A DNA stretch of 64,000 bases from an uncultured bacterium. Lineage in GTDB: Bacteria > Verrucomicrobiota > Kiritimatiellia > CAIKKV01 > CAITUY01. The stretch is from assembly GCA_903908715.1 (NCBI GenBank), contig CAIVSY010000111.1:58655-122654 (forward strand). Direction: 5' to 3'. Shown here piece by piece: positions 3,212 through 10,514 of this stretch; the stretch's first letter is position 1; every line of letters starts with the position of its first letter. The notes beneath the pieces were generated by a model. It searched no databases. It saw only the letters and a list, made by a program, of their open reading frames with translations, and was not told the origin of the DNA. The position numbers and the translations under genes are program-made.

Positions 3212-4033
3212 TCACCCGAGCGCCACATCCAGGGTCATCATCACCGCAAAACCGACCATCGTCCCGATCGTGGCAATATCCGTTTCCTTGTCGGCCTGCG
3301 ATTCGGGAATGAGTTCCTCGACCACCACATAGATCATGGCTCCAGCCGCAAAAGCCAGCGCATAAGGCAATACGGGCCGCATCCACAACACCAGGGCCGC
3401 ACCAATCACACCCGCAACCGGCTCCACCATGCCCGACAACTGGCCCAGCCAGAAACTCTTCCGGCAGGACATTCCCTCGCGCCGCAACGGGACCGACACA
3501 GCCGCCCCTTCGGGAAAGTTCTGGATCCCGATCCCCAGCGCAAGCACCACCGCGCCCGCCAGCGTGGCGGAAGGCAATCCTGCGCCAAGCGCCCCGAAGG
3601 CCACGCCCACCGCAAGACCTTCCGGGATGTTGTGCAGGGTAATCGCCAGCACCAGCAGGACACTGCGCTGCCAACTCGTCTTGATCCCCTCCTCTTCTCC
3701 CGCAAGCCCCCACATGTGTAAATGCGGAAGAAGCTTGTCCACACCCCACAGGAACGCGCCACCGGCCAGGAAACCGATCAACGGCGCCACCCACGGGCTG
3801 CCGCCATCAGCCTCGCTCATCTCGATCGATGGCGCCAGCAAGGACCAGTAACTCGCCGCAATCATCACGCCCGCGGCAAAACCGAGCATGCCGTCCAGGA
3901 CCTTCCGGTTGATCGTTTTGAAAACAAAAACCGCCGTCGCACCCAGCGCCGTCACCCCCCACGTGAAACACGTGGCAAGCAACGCCTGCAGCACCGGATG
4001 CAATCCCTGGAACCATGCCACCATCCCGCTCAT
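3212..4033 (-). CDS. zupT: ZIP family zinc transporter
   Basis: 273 aa polytopic membrane protein with the ZIP signature HNIPEG and a second HN/EG metal motif. AGGAGG ribosome-binding site upstream of ATG 4033. Confidence 0.85.
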
Positions 4034-4118
4034 ATCTTGCCTCCTGACAGATGTGGCACCTTAGCAAATGTTCAAAGGTTTCGCCATAGGCGCCTTTTCA
4101 TGCTAGTTTGAACGGGTT

Positions 4119-5429
4119 ATGACGCAGTCCGCCGCCGAGCTGTATGAGGCATGGAGCCGGAAAAGCCTGGAACACGCCCTTTCCGAGGTTCCCGGGTACG
4201 CATCATGGCGCGCGCTCGACCCCGGTCCGCATACCCCGATCGATGCCCGCTACGCCGCCCTGCCCACCCTCACAAAACAGGCGCTCCGCGATCATTTCCC
4301 GCACGGATTCATCCCCGGCAACCGGGATTTCGACCAAGGTATGGCCTCCGGCGAAATCGAACTCGCCCAGACGAGCGGCAGCACCGAGGACCGGGTGACT
4401 CTGATCTTCCACTCCCCCTGGTGGGAGGCATCGGAACAAGCCTCATGGCAGTTGAACCGGCACGCCCGCCTCCTGGCAACCGGATCCCATCCGGAAGCTG
4501 TCCTCGCATCACCCCTCTGCGTCGGGCCCGGCTACGCCCCGCACCCGCAGGCAATGAAAACCAGGATCCTCGGACGCCACCTTTACTTGAATGAAAAGAT
4601 CAACCCGGCAACCTGGACCTCCGGGGACATCCGCCGCATGGCGGATGAACTGGCCTCGTACCAGCCCGTCGTGCTGGAGGCCGACCCCGCCTATCTGTCT
4701 TTCTTTGCCCGCCGCGCCCTGGCGCTGAATCTCGAGTTGTACCAGCCCCGGCTGATTTTCCTGACCTATTCGTTTCCCTCCCGCCTCTACCATAGACGCA
4801 TCCGTTCCGCCTTCTCCGCGCCTATCGCCAGTTCCTACGGATCCACCGAAACCGGACACGTCTTCCTGCAGTGCGAAGCCGGGCGACTTCACCAGAATGT
4901 CGCGCATTGCCGCGTGGATTTTCAACCGTGGGCTCCCCGATGGAACCGGCCGGACCACGGGCGGATGCTGGTGACCGTTTTCCATAATCCCTGGTTTTCC
5001 GTCCTGCGTTTCGATATCGGCGATATCGCCTGCCTGGATACCCGCGGCCCTTGCCCCTGCGGACGTCGGGACGGACTGACCCTCTCGTCAATCGCCGGGC
5101 GCACCAAGGATGTAACCTTTACACCGGAAGGACTTCCTGTCACGGTGGATGATCTGGATGACGCCTTGTCCGGAATCGAGGGCCTGGAGGGTTGGCAACT
5201 CGACCATCTCCAACCGGCCGCGTATCATCTCCGCCTTCTCCACGAAGGGCAAAAGAACCTGACCTTGCCGCAGCATTGCAGGGAAAGGCTCGCCGCCGTG
5301 TACGGGCCTGCGGCGGTCATCACCGTGGAACCGGGCGATGCACTGAAGCATGAACCTTCAGGGAAGTTCCGTTTTGCGCGGACCTTCTTCCCCGTCGATC
5401 ATGATGCCCTTTGGAGAAACCGCCCGTGA
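4119..5429 (+). CDS. Adenylate-forming enzyme, ANL superfamily, PaaK/coenzyme F390 synthetase/CapK branch
   Basis: 436 aa. P-loop-like TSGSTEDRV, a second SYGSTETGHV motif and a C-terminal PSGKFRF lysine motif typical of this branch of the ANL family. Substrate unknown. Confidence 0.6.
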   Translation: MTQSAAELYEAWSRKSLEHALSEVPGYASWRALDPGPHTPIDARYAALPTLTKQALRDHFPHGFIPGNRDFDQGMASGEIELAQTSGSTEDRVTLIFHSPWWEASEQASWQLNRHARLLATGSHPEAVLASPLCVGPGYAPHPQAMKTRILGRHLYLNEKINPATWTSGDIRRMADELASYQPVVLEADPAYLSFFARRALALNLELYQPRLIFLTYSFPSRLYHRRIRSAFSAPIASSYGSTETGHVFLQCEAGRLHQNVAHCRVDFQPWAPRWNRPDHGRMLVTVFHNPWFSVLRFDIGDIACLDTRGPCPCGRRDGLTLSSIAGRTKDVTFTPEGLPVTVDDLDDALSGIEGLEGWQLDHLQPAAYHLRLLHEGQKNLTLPQHCRERLAAVYGPAAVITVEPGDALKHEPSGKFRFARTFFPVDHDALWRNRP

Positions 5430-6202
5430 ATCCTCCTCCCAACGTTCAGGCGGGAATCTCTTTCCAGCCCATCCACCTTCTTGCGGGCGGGGGACGGAGC
5501 CGCCGCAAATCGGGGGATCCGCTGCTGGCTGACTGCCTGGCTCTCGCCGGAAAACCCGCACCCGAAGTCGCCTACGTGGGAGCCGCCAGCGGGGATGACC
5601 CCTCGTTCTTTAAATACTTGTCAGGTCTCTTCCGGGAGGCAGGGGCCGACCGCGTACACCTTGTCCCCCTTTCCTCCCCCGGGGCCGACGCCGATGCCGC
5701 ATGCCACCAGCTTTCCCGCGCGGATCTTGTCTTCATCAGCGGCGGGGATGTGGAGGCCGGCATGCAGTGCCTCCGCAGGCACAGACTGATCCCGTTCCTG
5801 CGCCGCCTGCATAGCGGTGGCAAGCCCTTCTTCGGACTTTCCGCAGGCAGCATCATGCTGTGCCACCACTGGGTCCGCTGGACCGATCCGGATGACGACG
5901 GGAGCGCCCGCCTTTTCCAGTGCCTGGGATTGGCGCCCCTCGTTTGCGATACCCACGCCGAAAAGGAGGACTGGGTGGAACTCAAGACCCTCTTGCACCT
6001 CATGCCGGAGGGAAACGTCGGCTATGGCATTCCTGCGGGCGGCGGGCTCCGCGTGTCCCGTCCGGATTGCATCCTGGCGCTGGGCAAGCCGATATCCAGG
6101 TTCCGCCGGGAACGTCAGGGAATCCGCAGGCTCCCGCCGCTGGAACCGGACGGACACCCGGCCCTTCATCCCCCGCTCACGCCCCCGCCGGAACCGCCTT
6201 GA
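5426..6202 (+). CDS. Peptidase S51 family protein (dipeptidase E/cyanophycinase-like)
   Basis: Nucleophile motif GLSAGSIM (GxSAG) and FISGGD motif. The only possible starts are TTG 5411 (track) or GTG 5426. The GTG overlaps the upstream TGA as GTGA, which I prefer. The 3' end converges on the next gene with a 26-nt overlap. Confidence 0.55.
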   Translation: MNPPPNVQAGISFQPIHLLAGGGRSRRKSGDPLLADCLALAGKPAPEVAYVGAASGDDPSFFKYLSGLFREAGADRVHLVPLSSPGADADAACHQLSRADLVFISGGDVEAGMQCLRRHRLIPFLRRLHSGGKPFFGLSAGSIMLCHHWVRWTDPDDDGSARLFQCLGLAPLVCDTHAEKEDWVELKTLLHLMPEGNVGYGIPAGGGLRVSRPDCILALGKPISRFRRERQGIRRLPPLEPDGHPALHPPLTPPPEPP

Positions 6203-6899
6203 TCACGTATGCATCATGCGAGGCCGCAATGACCTGCCCCGGTTCGACGACCAGAAACCGCTCTGGATCCCACGGGCCGTTCAGGAAATCAATCACCAGG
6301 CGCGCATCGCCGGTCAACTCATCACTCTTCCACCCCAGCCAGGCGGCGCACTCCCGCGTGTACTCCTTGTGCCGGTCGTTGTCCCCGAATCCCAGATCAA
6401 CATAGGCCGCGTTGTTGTACTCCCTGAGCCAGCCCTGCTCCATCTCCATAAGGTACCGGGCATTGTCTTCCCCGTACTTCTCCACATACTGGCGCATCAG
6501 CAGATCGTAACGTTCCTTGCCGGGCTGAACGGAACATTCAATCCAGCCCGGGGTATACCAGTAGGTACCCGGATGACTGTCGAAATACTCACGATACCTC
6601 TCTTTGGAACCCAGGAAGAACGTGATACAGTCATGGGCACGCGGGATCACGAGACGGTGCCGCCCGGCCCGGATCCCGGCCAGCCCGTTACTGCACAAGC
6701 CGTAACCGAGCAGCACAGCATCGCACGCCGGCTCATCCCACTCGTCCACCGCCGCCTGCAGCCGGTCGCGCAACAGCTCCGGTGTGTTGTGCAACCCCTG
6801 CTCCAGGAAATCAAAGGTATAGAAATTCCGCGCCAAGGCTGCGTGGTAGCAAAGCTCCCGCCACAACACCTGGCAGGCTATCAGGTGATAACGAGCCAT
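6177..6899 (-). CDS. Conserved hypothetical protein (possibly DUF1638-like)
   Basis: 240 aa, no TM segment, natural composition. LLGYGLC…HDCITFFLG block. The ATG abuts the tpx stop (TAAATG, 0-nt spacer), suggesting co-translation with tpx. Confidence 0.45.
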   Translation of the reverse strand: MARYHLIACQVLWRELCYHAALARNFYTFDFLEQGLHNTPELLRDRLQAAVDEWDEPACDAVLLGYGLCSNGLAGIRAGRHRLVIPRAHDCITFFLGSKERYREYFDSHPGTYWYTPGWIECSVQPGKERYDLLMRQYVEKYGEDNARYLMEMEQGWLREYNNAAYVDLGFGDNDRHKEYTRECAAWLGWKSDELTGDARLVIDFLNGPWDPERFLVVEPGQVIAASHDAYVIKAVPAGA

Positions 6900-7406
6900 T
6901 TATCCGCCCTTCTTCAGGGCCAGCAGCACGGCCTCATAGTTGGGTTCCTGCGCGATTTCCGGAACCTGCTCCGCGTAGATCACCTTGTTGTCCTTGCCCA
7001 GCACCAGCACCGCACGACTCATCAGGCCCGCCAGCGGCCCGGACACAATCGCCACACCGTAGGTCTTCCCGAATTCCGGCGACCGGAAGGTCGAAAGATT
7101 AACCACGTTCTGGAGCGAATGGCTCTCGCAAAACCGCTTCTGCGCAAAGGGCAGATCCGCCGAGATGTTCACAATCACGGTGTCCGGAAGAGCCCCCGCC
7201 TCGCGGTTGAACCGCTGGGCCGAAAGAGCGCACACCGGAGTGTCCAGACTGGGGACAATGTTCAGCACCTTCTTCCCCTGGAACGCATCGAGCCCCACAT
7301 CCGCCAGATCGGCGGCTGCCAGCTTGAACGCCGGCGCAACCATCCCTTCCCTGGGCAATGCGCCTGCTGTCTGAACCGGATTCCCCTTGAATGTAATCGT
7401 CGCCAT
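6900..7406 (-). CDS. tpx: Thiol peroxidase (atypical 2-Cys peroxiredoxin)
   Basis: 168 aa. Tpx-specific LNIVPSLDTPVC peroxidatic Cys context and a resolving Cys in RFCES. Confidence 0.85.
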   Translation of the reverse strand: MATITFKGNPVQTAGALPREGMVAPAFKLAAADLADVGLDAFQGKKVLNIVPSLDTPVCALSAQRFNREAGALPDTVIVNISADLPFAQKRFCESHSLQNVVNLSTFRSPEFGKTYGVAIVSGPLAGLMSRAVLVLGKDNKVIYAEQVPEIAQEPNYEAVLLALKKGG

Positions 7407-7575: not shown

Positions 7576-9282
7576 ATGACCACGGCACTGCCAACCAGTT
7601 TGACCGGCTTGCTGACCCGGACCGGCCTGCTTTCGGAATCCCAGATCGCCTCGGTCCTCCAGCATGCCCAGCAGACCGAGCTGTCCATCACCCGGGCGGT
7701 TACCACTCTGGGGTTTGCCGGCGAGGACGCCTTCCTGGAGGCGCTGGCCATGGCCCTGCATCTCCCCTTTGTCCGGCTCGGATCGCAGAACATCGAGGCC
7801 GATGTGCTCGCCAAGCTCCCGACCCGTGCCGTCTTCCAGTACAACGTGATCCCCTATGCGATCGAGAACGGCGCCCTGCGCGTCGCCACGAACGACCCCT
7901 TCGATGCCGGCCTCGTGGATGCCCTCCGGCTGGCATCCGGGATGCGCGTCCGCCTCGCCCTGGCGATGGAGAACGAGATCGCCGCCGCCATCAAGAAGTT
8001 CTACGGCGTCGGCGCCGACACGGTCGAAAAACTGATGCAGGACGGCGACCGGATCGAAGTCGCCCCGGAGGAAACCCTCGGCAAGACGGACCTGAGCGAA
8101 CTCGACCAGGAAGCCTCCATCGTCCGGTTTGTGAACCAGATCATCTGGGAGGCTTACCAGGAACGCTCCACGGATATCCATCTGGAGCCAATGGAGAACC
8201 AGCTCCGGATCCGGTACCGCGTGGACGGCGTCCTGCACCAGACCCCGCTCCCTCCCCAGCTGACCCGCTTCCAGGCCGCCATCATCTCACGTATCAAGGT
8301 CATGGCCAACATGGATATCGCCGAGAAACGCCTTCCCCAGGACGGGCGCATCGGCATGCGGATCCAGGGCGAGGATATCGACATCCGCGTCTCGACCATG
8401 CCTACCGTCTACGGCGAAAGCGTCAGCCTCCGCCTCCTCATGCGCGGCAAGGAGTTCATCGGGTTCAAGGAACTGGGTATGCGCCCGCGCGACGAAGCCA
8501 TCCTCCGGAAACTGATTGAAAAGCCGAACGGCATCATCCTCGTCACAGGCCCGACCGGCTCGGGCAAGTCCACCTCACTCTATGCCTACCTGCACGAAAT
8601 CAACACGATCGACCAGCGGATCATCACCGTCGAGGATCCGATCGAATACGAGATGGCAGGCATCAACCAGATCAGCGTCCGCTCGGAAATCGGATTGACC
8701 TTTGCCACCGCCCTGCGCCATATCCTGCGCCAGGACCCGGATATCATCATGATCGGTGAAATCCGCGACTTTGAGACCGCGGAAATCGCCATCCGCGCCT
8801 CGCTGACCGGGCATTTGGTCTTCAGCACGCTCCATACCAACGACGCGGCCGGAGCGGTGACCCGCCTCCTCGACATGGGCGTGGAACCCTTCCTGGTCGC
8901 GTCATCCCTGGAAGCGGTCGTCGCCCAGCGCCTCATCCGGCGCCTGTGCCCCTTCTGCAAGCGGCCGGCCAAGCCGGATGTCCCGTTCCTCTCCACCATC
9001 GGCTTCCCGGTCGACCGCCTTTCCAACACCCCCATCCTGGAGGCGGTCGGATGCGAGAAGTGCCGCATGACCGGGTTCAAGGGCCGCACAGGCCTCTATG
9101 AAGTCCTCCAGGTCACCGAGGAAATCGAACCTCTGATCCTCCAGCGTTCCTCCTCCCACGCGATCAAGTTGAAGGGTACCAGCCAGGGCATGATCACCCT
9201 CCGGGAAGACGGCTGGATGAAAGTCCTGGAAGGCGTTACCACGATCGAGGAAGTCCTGCGCGTATCGGAGGAAACGGATTGA
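7576..9282 (+). CDS. gspE: Type II secretion system ATPase GspE
   Basis: 568 aa. N-terminal T2SS-E N1 domain, Walker A GPTGSGKST, Asp/His boxes and a tetracysteine CPFC…CEKC motif. Confidence 0.9.
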   Translation: MTTALPTSLTGLLTRTGLLSESQIASVLQHAQQTELSITRAVTTLGFAGEDAFLEALAMALHLPFVRLGSQNIEADVLAKLPTRAVFQYNVIPYAIENGALRVATNDPFDAGLVDALRLASGMRVRLALAMENEIAAAIKKFYGVGADTVEKLMQDGDRIEVAPEETLGKTDLSELDQEASIVRFVNQIIWEAYQERSTDIHLEPMENQLRIRYRVDGVLHQTPLPPQLTRFQAAIISRIKVMANMDIAEKRLPQDGRIGMRIQGEDIDIRVSTMPTVYGESVSLRLLMRGKEFIGFKELGMRPRDEAILRKLIEKPNGIILVTGPTGSGKSTSLYAYLHEINTIDQRIITVEDPIEYEMAGINQISVRSEIGLTFATALRHILRQDPDIIMIGEIRDFETAEIAIRASLTGHLVFSTLHTNDAAGAVTRLLDMGVEPFLVASSLEAVVAQRLIRRLCPFCKRPAKPDVPFLSTIGFPVDRLSNTPILEAVGCEKCRMTGFKGRTGLYEVLQVTEEIEPLILQRSSSHAIKLKGTSQGMITLREDGWMKVLEGVTTIEEVLRVSEETD

Positions 9283-10514
9283 TCTTCTCCTATAAAGCCA
9301 AGGAAAAGTCCGGACAAACGGTGACCGGATCCCTCGAGGCCAACGACCGGATCAGCGCCCTGAAACAACTCTCGAAACTGGGACTGACCCCCATCTCGAT
9401 CGCCGCCTCCGAGTCCGGCACCGCCACTCCCGCCACTCCCGTCGCACAATTCAGGCTCACCCTGCGCCGCAAACCGCGCATGCGCACCGGCGAAGTCCTG
9501 AATTTCTCAACCGAACTCAGCGACCTGCTCGCCTCGGGCATGACCCTCGGCCATGCCCTCACGACGCTGAGCAAACGCAGGACCGGCGGCCCCGCCGATG
9601 ACATCATCCGGGACCTGCGAGACCAGATCGTGCAGGGTACCAACCTCTCCGACGCCATGGCTCGCCATCCGGACAGCTTCGGATCCCTGTATGTCAGCAT
9701 GGTGCGCGTCGGCGAAGCCAGCGGCGCCCTATCGGAAATCATGCTGCGCCTCGTGGAACACTACGAGCGCCTCCAGGACCTGAAGGAGAAGGTCATCATG
9801 GCCCTGGTCTACCCGGCGATCGTCCTCGGCATGGGCTTCGTTACGATGATCTTCTCCATGGTCTATGTTATCCCGAAGTTCTCCGCCATCTTCGAGGAAC
9901 TCGGCAGCACCCTGCCGCTGCCAACCCGTATGCTGATTGCCATGAGCGGATTCCTCCTGCGCTACGGGTGGCTGCTCCTCGGCCTCGTGGTCGCCGTCGG
10001 CGTCCTGCTCTCTCGCGCGCTGAAAACACCGGCCGGCCGCCTGCGATGGCACCGCGCCCAGCTGCGAATCCCGTTCCTGCGCAGCATCATCGCCTCCAGC
10101 ACCTATGCCAATTTCGCACGGACCCTCAGCACCCTGCTGACCAATGGCGTCCCCGCCCTGCAGGCGCTGGGTATCGTGGAACAGACCATCGGCAACGTCA
10201 TCATCGCCGGCGAAATCCGCAAGGCAAGGGACCGCGTCACCGATGGAACCACCATCTCGGGCCCGCTGGCCGCCGGCGGCGTCTTCCCGCCCCTGATGAC
10301 GGATATGCTGGCGATCGGCGAACAAACCGGCGATATGCCGGGCGCCCTGAAGCATATCGCGCATCGCTACGAAACCGAGCTGAGCCGGAATGTGAAACTC
10401 TTCACCACCGCACTGGAGCCCATTCTCATCGTCCTGGTCGCCGTTCTCGTGGGTTTCATTGCCGTCAGCATCGTGATGGCAGTGTTCAACGTCACAAACG
10501 GCCTTGGAGTCTGA
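9279..10514 (+). CDS. gspF: Type II secretion system inner-membrane platform protein GspF
   Basis: 411 aa. TTG start overlapping the gspE TGA (TTGA). Conserved GspF/PilC N-terminus (F-Y-KAK…G…G) and two GspF repeats with three TM segments. Confidence 0.85.
   Translation: MIFSYKAKEKSGQTVTGSLEANDRISALKQLSKLGLTPISIAASESGTATPATPVAQFRLTLRRKPRMRTGEVLNFSTELSDLLASGMTLGHALTTLSKRRTGGPADDIIRDLRDQIVQGTNLSDAMARHPDSFGSLYVSMVRVGEASGALSEIMLRLVEHYERLQDLKEKVIMALVYPAIVLGMGFVTMIFSMVYVIPKFSAIFEELGSTLPLPTRMLIAMSGFLLRYGWLLLGLVVAVGVLLSRALKTPAGRLRWHRAQLRIPFLRSIIASSTYANFARTLSTLLTNGVPALQALGIVEQTIGNVIIAGEIRKARDRVTDGTTISGPLAAGGVFPPLMTDMLAIGEQTGDMPGALKHIAHRYETELSRNVKLFTTALEPILIVLVAVLVGFIAVSIVMAVFNVTNGLGV

Follow-up and report, generated by a model that had tools for sequence, protein, structure and literature searches.

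A translationally coupled gene pair encoding a PaaK-like adenylating enzyme and an atypical S51-fold protein, with relatives that point to sulfur chemistry

A stretch of 64,000 nucleotides from an uncultured bacterium of the Kiritimatiellia (contig CAIVSY010000111.1, positions 58,655 to 122,654; hereafter the window) revealed two adjacent open reading frames, ORF1 and ORF2, which form a translationally coupled and co-inherited two-gene unit whose pairing goes beyond chance. By its motifs and modelled fold, ORF1 is predicted to be a catalytically complete adenylate-forming enzyme of the PaaK type, from an uncharacterised family within the ANL superfamily, and ORF2 an S51-fold serine hydrolase, likewise of an uncharacterised family, with a non-canonical candidate triad, Ser-His-Glu(+2). 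The two proteins very probably act on one shared substrate. Based on the genes found in sister branches of the family, we tentatively read the pair as a carboxylate-activation and amide-release module of sulfur trafficking. The two genes and the ribosome-binding signal between them are as follows:

4119..5429, + strand: ORF1, PaaK-like adenylate-forming (ANL) enzyme by prediction, 436 aa, uncharacterised family; 100% match to public protein P0001
5413..5416, + strand: GGAG, Shine-Dalgarno-like, inside the 3' end of ORF1 and 9 nt before the GTG of ORF2; read directly from the sequence
5426..6202, + strand: ORF2, predicted S51-fold serine hydrolase, 258 aa, GTG start

The GTG start codon of ORF2 (5426-5428) overlaps the TGA stop codon of ORF1 (5427-5429) as GTGA. 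This overlap had been described in an earlier note on this DNA, and it is borne out by the sequence as well as by the public gene calls for the same contig, which give the identical GTG start and a 258-aa product for ORF2. For a comparison of neighbourhoods, which that note had proposed, 96 loci were fetched (numbered with the prefix L), and adjacency was counted over dereplicated loci with enough room beside the ANL gene. In clade A, comprising the loci whose ANL is at least 57% identical to ORF1, 38 of 40 loci have an S51 gene immediately after the ANL gene, on its downstream side. The same holds for 7 of 8 loci in species-representative genomes, with labels Aminicenantes, PVC group, Deltaproteobacteria, Verrucomicrobiota, Clostridia, Thermodesulfobacteriota, and unclassified "bacterium". 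Homologues are abundant in metagenomes, where both genes occur on the same contigs (57-76% identity for ORF1, 49-66% for ORF2), and altogether the pair is spread over at least six bacterial phyla, mostly in uncultured members, at about 60% identity. A 4-nt overlap of the ANL and S51 genes is found in L010, L012, and L015, and a longer one in L013 and L016. Pairwise identities of the ORF1 and ORF2 proteins are correlated (r = 0.66), a value reached by 0 of 2000 permutations. A conserved wider neighbourhood was also considered for the window's branch and rejected, as the flanks differ in nearly every lineage. The earlier note had named two findings that would speak against its reading, a placement of ORF1 outside the ANL superfamily and a lack of adjacency in related genomes; the opposite was found in both cases.

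The following motifs were located in ORF1:

4371..4388, + strand: TSGSTE, the ANL phosphate-binding motif (residues 85-90), with T85, S86, and G87 invariant in 90 homologues
4413..4436, + strand: SPWWEASE (WW-x2-SE), a family-specific signature common to all three family branches
4509..4538, + strand: SPLCVGPGYA with the single Cys134; SufS-linked relatives carry P-x-C-x4-C-H-[VI]-G at the same place
4833..4856, + strand: SYGSTETG, ANL motif (residues 239-246)
5049..5066, + strand: PCPCGR with Cys312 and Cys314, which together with Cys252 and Cys264 make up a four-Cys set kept family-wide
5097..5111, + strand: GRTKD, hinge motif (residues 327-331)
5352..5372, + strand: EPSGKFR, C-terminal motif with the predicted catalytic Lys416; E412, S414, G415, K416, and R418 invariant

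The earlier note had assigned ORF1 to the PaaK branch of the ANL superfamily on the strength of TSGSTE and SYGSTETG. Both motifs are present, the two ORFs lie where it had put them, and the modelled fold agrees. In addition, GD at residues 301-302 supplies the Asp of the ATP-ribose motif, and YGxTE, this Asp, the GRxxD hinge, and the C-terminal Lys are conserved in all three branches of the ANL family. The AlphaFold2 model of ORF1 (predicted local distance difference test score, pLDDT, 93.5; predicted template modelling score, pTM, 0.91) displays the large N-terminal and small C-terminal domain of the fold, and a Foldseek search with it returned BT_0428, PaaK1, NatL2, AjiA1, and ClxA with E-values of 8e-21 to 1e-17 and TM (template modelling) scores of 0.63-0.74, BT_0428 and PaaK1 being the best matches (E 8e-21, TM 0.72-0.74). 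Identity to the solved structures is merely 13-20%. A sequence search of the PDB placed AjiA1 (E 3.8e-12) and NatL2 (E 7e-11) closest to ORF1 among solved proteins, and in this alignment the Cys134 segment corresponds to the stretch after the phosphate loop, which we take, from the PaaK1 structure, to line the acyl pocket. Thus, the Cys134 segment of ORF1 may line the acyl pocket as well.

Curated models recognise this protein poorly. Searches with hidden Markov models (HMMs), also proposed in the earlier note, turned out in part as expected: PF03575 matched ORF2 (see below), but the AMP-binding model did not match ORF1, and the accession named for it, PF01266, belongs to DAO. Pfam revealed no family for ORF1 up to an E-value of 0.01, the gathering score of the AMP-binding family PF00501 was not reached, and the PF00501 matches of distant members of the ANL family were all sub-threshold. 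NCBIfam gave weak matches of 18-29 bits (FlxY, DVU_1553 family, BagE/FevW, PaaK) against cut-offs of 300-800. The PaaK equivalog NF041878 scored 17.9 bits against a cut-off of 700, TIGR02155 was not among the matches, and no paa genes were found in the window annotation. A profile search against 1.8 billion cluster representatives yielded 236 clusters at E < 1e-30, whose tested members all fell below curated cut-offs. One homologue of ORF1, P0045, has a precomputed match to PF27533, a family that the local Pfam search did not return for ORF1.

A more distant sister group of ANL proteins (150-220 bits to the profile) contains proteins in which an alpha/beta-hydrolase (proline-iminopeptidase-like) and a PqqD-like peptide-recognition domain are fused to the ANL enzyme, such as P0305 (823 aa) and P0345 (842 aa), as well as many members of 500-540 aa with an unassigned N-terminal extension. 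The fusions suggest peptide-modifying relatives, similar to those of ribosomally synthesised and post-translationally modified peptides, with a serine hydrolase once more combined with an ANL. They were the sole fusion type among the best 150 cluster representatives, where fusions of ANL with S51, SufS, or ThiS did not occur.

The corresponding features of ORF2 are:

5834..5851, + strand: GLSAGS, nucleophile elbow with Ser139 (residues 137-142)
5945..5962, + strand: CDTHAE with the invariant Asp175, His177, and Glu179 (His-x-Glu)
6020..6046, + strand: GYGIPAGGG, with Ala204 in the column of the canonical S51 acid (CphB Glu201); no family member has an acid there
6131..6199, + strand: proline-rich C-terminal tail, LPPLEPDGHPALHPPLTPPPEPP; homologues are without it, and its prediction is of low confidence

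Membership of ORF2 in S51, with GLSAGS as the nucleophile motif, had been proposed in the earlier note as well, and is supported by the Pfam Peptidase_S51 model (PF03575, 62.6 bits against a cut-off of 23.9) and by a structure model with the S51 fold (pLDDT 92.9). Ser139 in the G-x-S-x-G elbow and His177 in D-x-H are invariant and align with Ser132 and His174 of CphB. The nucleophile is Ser in 92 of 92 aligned members and in 52 further members from the fetched loci, and never Cys. The third triad residue of S51, a Glu or Asp about 27-35 residues past the His, was not found in the ORF2 family: the column of CphB Glu201 (GIDEDT), in which ORF2 has Ala204, is occupied by Ala, Ser, Thr, or Gly. 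In place of the canonical acid, His177-Ala-Glu179 is invariant, with the Glu two residues past the His. Equivalog models remained far below their cut-offs (PepE 25.1 bits against 156, cyanophycinase 28 against 126.6).

Class I amidotransferases have His-x-Glu with the same spacing, which probably accounts for the PdxT glutaminase being the best PDB match of ORF2 in a search on sequence only (E 1.4e-4, with an alignment that spans the nucleophile elbow); a weak Pfam GATase_3 match was also detected. Together with the invariant His177-x-Glu179 and the gene overlap, which is typical of heteromeric amidotransferases, these matches would fit a two-subunit amidotransferase after the logic of MurT/GatD. 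ORF2 would then be a Ser-type glutaminase or amidase feeding ammonia to the acyl-adenylate of ORF1, converting a carboxylate to a carboxamide, and SufS would play the corresponding part, as sulfur donor, in other branches. We regard this as quite unlikely, as an amidotransferase would be expected to use Cys and not the Ser seen in every member of the ORF2 family, the related loci that combine ANL, SufS, and S51 would hold two different nucleophile donors, and the branch with ThiS and MnmA has no S51 gene.

These related loci belong to sister branches, whose ANLs are 41-49% identical to ORF1. Three locus arrangements were found:

[CysK]-ANL-SufS-like-S51: L047, L049, L053, L056, L066, L067, L070, L071, and L081, of which L047 and L049 have the operon with CysK (CysK-ANL-SufS-S51)
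(EF2568-type desulfurase or CysE)-MetX-MetW-NifS-NifU-ThiS-like-ANL-SufS-like-MnmA-CysE: about 12 loci
S51 divergent from or upstream of ANL: L054, L084, L094, L060, and L087

The gene directly after the sister-branch ANL encodes a SufS-family cysteine desulfurase (TIGR01979, 405-413 bits; Aminotran_5, 378 bits), with the Lys for pyridoxal phosphate (PLP) and the HCA Cys motif. The residues that are invariant in the ORF2 family are also conserved in the S51 proteins encoded at the SufS-linked loci. The second arrangement is represented by an operon from a peat metagenome (L069:75-9648; also L063-L065, L073-L075, L078, L079, L083, and L088) with genes for an EF2568-type desulfurase, MetX, MetW, NifS, NifU, the ThiS-like protein, ANL, the SufS-like protein, MnmA, and CysE, so that three cysteine desulfurase paralogues stand in one gene string. 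Altogether, SufS, the ThiS family, NifS/NifU, MnmA, and the cysteine and methionine genes of the sister branches point to sulfur chemistry over generic amino-acid tailoring. The earlier note had conjectured an "activate-then-cleave" or "ligate-then-trim" module for an amino-acid-derived small molecule.

The small ORF between NifU and ANL scores 26.7-39.2 bits on the ThiS model PF02597 (cut-off 22.5). It was located at L061:334-516, L075:4662-4844, L063:3157-3339, L069:4703-4873, and L073:4743-4913. Its product occurs in two forms. The longer, of 60 aa, has the C-terminus FEGG or LEGG in some lineages and FEDG in a single one. The other, shorter by four residues at 56 aa, closes with IPV, IPI, or ISI and has no Gly-Gly tail, which a sulfur carrier requires. 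In L073/L079, L074, and L088, which encode the 56-aa form, an AT-rich sequence follows about 8-20 nt past the stop, namely ATTATTCATTACATTAAAT in L073, L079, and L088 and ATATTCATTACATCAAAT in L074, which might be an operator. A search for ORFs with a Gly-Gly end and a search of six-frame translations with an HMM of the ThiS-like ORF revealed no ThiS-like carrier in the window, in clade A, or in the ANL-SufS-S51 loci, and no E1-like (ThiF/MoeB) gene was found in the annotated sister-branch operons.

The Cys motif of the ANL, counted over dereplicated loci with room, tracks the partner gene:

ANL with P-x-C-x4-C-H-[VI]-G (window residues 133-141), n = 24: SufS directly downstream in 23 of 24, S51 in the locus in 9 of 24
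ANL with SP[RL]CVGPG or no Cys, n = 34: SufS directly downstream in 0 of 34, S51 in the locus in 31 of 34

The lone locus with Cys-x4-Cys-His and no SufS has just 614 bp downstream. Since the loci are phylogenetically related, this association is to be taken as a pattern and not as a probability, but it is essentially free of exceptions. ORF1 of the window is of the single-Cys type with S51 only.

Based on these data, the reading of the pair as a module of sulfur trafficking, which we consider possible but hold tentatively, can be put in the following steps. ORF1 would adenylate a carboxylate, either an amino-acid-type acid or the C-terminus of a peptide or protein encoded elsewhere. The acyl-adenylate would be converted to a thiocarboxylate by a sulfur nucleophile, which in the branches with Cys-x4-Cys-His would be the persulfide of SufS and in the window's branch, with one Cys and without SufS, might be free sulfide. 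The thiocarboxylate could then give its sulfur to activated serine or homoserine on an enzyme of the CysK/CysM/MetY type encoded elsewhere. After an S-to-N acyl shift, ORF2 would cleave the amide of the resulting N-acyl-cysteine or N-acyl-homocysteine, whereby the thiol amino acid would be released and the carboxylate regenerated. A precedent for this logic is CysO, which is adenylated and thiocarboxylated in a MoeZR-dependent manner and added by CysM to O-phosphoserine, after which the protease Mec+ frees cysteine from the CysO-cysteine adduct (PMC3227635). For the S51 side, MccG, an enzyme of this family, attacks the acyl carbon of an aspartyl-adenylate isostere (PMC9239234). A bolder version, which seems rather improbable to us, would be that a PaaK-like ANL family took over the job of the E1-like enzymes ThiF, MoeB, and MoeZ, adenylating a carboxylate and converting it to a thiocarboxylate by means of SufS persulfide, through an active-site Cys-x4-Cys-His, or of free sulfide in the single-Cys branch of the window. 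The S51 hydrolase with its non-canonical triad would be dedicated to release or recycling. For the window's pair this would mean a minimal cycle of thiocarboxylate formation in anaerobes, in which a carrier is either dispensed with or encoded elsewhere.

Several observations weigh against the sulfur-trafficking module. Homologues of SufS, ThiS, NifS, MnmA, and CysK are absent at E < 1e-15 across the 64-kb window, its ANL has a single Cys in the motif, and the ANLs of L007 and L008 have no Cys there and are still paired with an S51 gene. Cysteine or methionine genes lie near only 2 of about 40 clade-A loci (MetX-MetW-CysE in L005, CysK in L041), a number judged close to a rough, uncomputed chance estimate of about 0.3-0.5 loci. 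Furthermore, the flanks of the ThiS/NifU/MnmA branch hold no S51 gene, and about half of the ThiS-like ORFs are without the Gly-Gly end. The use of cysteine sulfur via SufS to make cysteine is circular, and is sensible only for homocysteine or another thiol. Characterised S51 enzymes take substrates with an N-terminal aspartyl group and not N-acyl amino acids, ORF2 may, without the canonical acid, not be a simple hydrolase, and the proposal names no specific carboxylate substrate.

The main rival is an acyl-transfer or ligase pair, in which ORF1 would form an acyl- or aminoacyl-adenylate that is passed on as an ester to Ser139 and from there to an amine, thiol, or hydroxyl acceptor, thus a carrier-free, minimal dipeptide or amide synthetase of the "adenylation plus thioesterase-like" kind. 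A direct hand-over of the acyl-AMP to Ser139 would be chemically reasonable because MccG can attack the acyl carbon of such an isostere, so that an S51 active site is known to accept an aminoacyl-adenylate analogue (PMC9239234). Translational coupling and co-inheritance of the genes would fit such a pair, and the alpha/beta-hydrolase-PqqD-ANL fusions physically join a serine hydrolase to an ANL of this kind. The closest solved relatives of ORF1, namely NatL2, AjiA1, and ClxA, make esters or amides without coenzyme A (CoA) and with a hydrolase-fold partner. The non-canonical His-x-Glu, moreover, is the arrangement of enzymes with the class I amidotransferase fold and is also used by the acyl-enzyme transferase MetA/HTS. 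Acyl transfer, however, leaves both the insertion of SufS between the two genes and its correlation with Cys-x4-Cys-His unexplained, no gene supplying an acceptor or mediating export is conserved nearby, and the ANL-S51 fusion that might be expected is absent from the best 150 cluster representatives. We therefore consider it a doubtful explanation.

Only one neighbour recurs in clade A, a gene for an M3-family oligoendopeptidase, which was found next to the pair, upstream in some cases and downstream in others, in about 16 loci that belong to one lineage (including L012-L014, L024, L026, L029, L030, L035, L037-L040, L044, and L090), usually with a gene for a PDZ-domain protein nearby; with the L012 copy as the query, its products show 76-91% identity. 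Occasional neighbours are genes for an S9 peptidase (L002), an aminotransferase (L016), and an Atg22-like transporter (L008). Such genes, the S51 dipeptidase fold of ORF2, and the classical role of PaaK-type enzymes as CoA ligases would suit a catabolic or salvage function in the order "cleave, then activate": ORF2 as a dipeptidase or amidase would release an acid by cleaving a small peptide or an N-acyl amino acid, and ORF1 would make its CoA thioester. This also seems unlikely to us, given that the M3 association is limited to a single lineage, that neither genes of a CoA-ester pathway downstream nor a transporter are conserved, and that the canonical S51 acid is missing in ORF2. The data on SufS, ThiS, and the Cys motif would again be left without an explanation.

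Some clade-A loci deviate from the pairing. In L005 (9262-14437), L022, and L023, whose ANLs are 65-67% identical to ORF1, the S51 gene is absent, and a convergent Orn/Arg-decarboxylase-like gene and a hexapeptide-repeat transferase gene are carried instead; the MetX-MetW-CysE genes of L005 lie 2.4 kb downstream. The closest relative of the window, L017 (883-2427, metagenome contig Ga0209609_10011537), keeps the synteny of ZupT, ANL, DUF1638, and Tpx. Its flanking proteins are 85-91% identical to those of the window, but its intact ANL is merely 68% identical, and the S51 gene is a remnant of 65 residues that matches only residues 194-258. This may indicate decay of the module in that lineage or a pair evolving faster than its flanks. 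Since the ANL of L017 is intact beside the remnant, an ANL can persist without its S51 partner. Such persistence would be in line with a loose linkage in which ORF2 serves editing or detoxification, hydrolysing a mis-made or toxic compound similar to an acyl- or aminoacyl-adenylate in the manner of MccG-type S51 enzymes, which cleave aspartamidyl-nucleotides, or in which the adjacency is functionally meaningless. We judge this very unlikely. The adjacency in clade A, the overlap kept across phyla, and the correlated divergence favour an obligate partnership; microcin-like biosynthetic genes are absent and PADLOC gave no match; and MccG has a canonical acid, Asp196, which the ORF2 family does not possess.

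In the window, a DUF1638 gene (154.7 bits; 6177-6899, - strand) converges on ORF2, with an overlap of the 3' ends of 26 bp, and is adjoined by a gene for the thiol peroxidase Tpx (6900-7406, - strand). The adjacency of DUF1638 and Tpx is kept in L017, and that of Tpx in L004. Further downstream (7576-10514, + strand) follow a gene for a GspE/PilB-type secretion ATPase, whose counterpart on the identical public contig has MshEN and T2SSE domains, and an ORF of 411 aa, GspF/PilC-like by sequence reading; both are unrelated to the pair. A defence system was considered and rejected, as PADLOC gave zero matches for ORF1, ORF2, and the DUF1638 neighbour. A mobile element was rejected as well, the best plasmid matches being at most 28% identical and the window being without tRNA genes. 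At the gathering score, Rfam had no match in the window; in 13 related loci it matched tRNAs only, and no SAM, T-box, or other riboswitch was detected. Promoter and terminator matches around 3900-6500 were not above shuffled expectation.

Both superfamilies are well known, while their fixed pairing is described neither in Pfam, NCBIfam, or PADLOC nor in the literature searched. This agrees with the earlier note, which knew of no such system, and with the scores of ORF1 below all NCBIfam and Pfam cut-offs. Two ways to activate a carboxylate for sulfur transfer are known, namely by E1-like enzymes and by PP-loop ATPases. If the sulfur reading were true, the pair would represent a third enzymatic solution and a new use of the S51 fold. 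The correlation of motif and context, Cys-x4-Cys-His with SufS and the single Cys with S51 only, singles out residues and partner proteins. If the sulfur reading were wrong, the non-canonical triad of ORF2 and its obligate ANL partner would still provide a test case for the interconversion of the S51 and amidotransferase folds.

In comparison with known systems, ORF1 shares the two-domain fold and all adenylation motifs, including the C-terminal Lys, with PaaK-family enzymes (PaaK1, BT_0428, NatL2, AjiA1, ClxA, BagE/FevW, and FlxY), and with AjiA1 and NatL2 also the C-x-C-G loop and Cys252. Unlike these, it has signatures of its own (WW-x2-SE, SP-x-C-VGPG, and Cys264), and its partner is an S51 hydrolase in place of paa genes or an amidohydrolase. 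With regard to sulfur transfer, the sister loci comprise the same set of roles as MoeZR/CysO/CysM/Mec+, HcyS/HcyF/HcyD/MetY, and TtuB/TtuC/TtuA, that is, adenylation, sulfur from a desulfurase or from sulfide, a PLP-dependent cysteine synthase, and a releasing peptidase. The CysK-ANL-SufS-S51 operon has every role of MoeZR/CysO/CysM/Mec+ save the carrier, and the string ThiS-ANL-SufS-MnmA resembles the tRNA-thiolation logic of TtuB/TtuC/TtuA. The parts, however, are not homologous to those of MoeZ/CysO/CysM/Mec+, with an ANL standing for the E1-like enzyme and S51 for the JAMM protease, so that the likeness is an analogy of logic and not membership. Compared to ThiF/MoeB-type systems, the window's branch is without a carrier gene, SufS, and the second Cys, and the link to a desulfurase is found in the sister branches only. 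ORF2 has the Ser elbow and the His in D-x-H in common with the S51 proteins PepE, CphB, pseudo-CphB, and MccG. The acid 27-35 residues past the His, which is Glu in PepE and CphB, Asp196 in MccG, and Asp198 in a characterised enzyme that is also named Orf2, is absent from the window's ORF2 family. As in PdxS/PdxT, HisF/HisH, and MurT/GatD, ORF2 is a small flavodoxin-like protein with a nucleophile elbow and His-x-Glu, encoded by a gene that overlaps that of an ATP-dependent partner; unlike in class I glutamine amidotransferase subunits, its nucleophile is Ser and not Cys, and the partner is an ANL enzyme. In contrast to the known S51 members, the ORF2 family is always encoded together with an adenylating enzyme.

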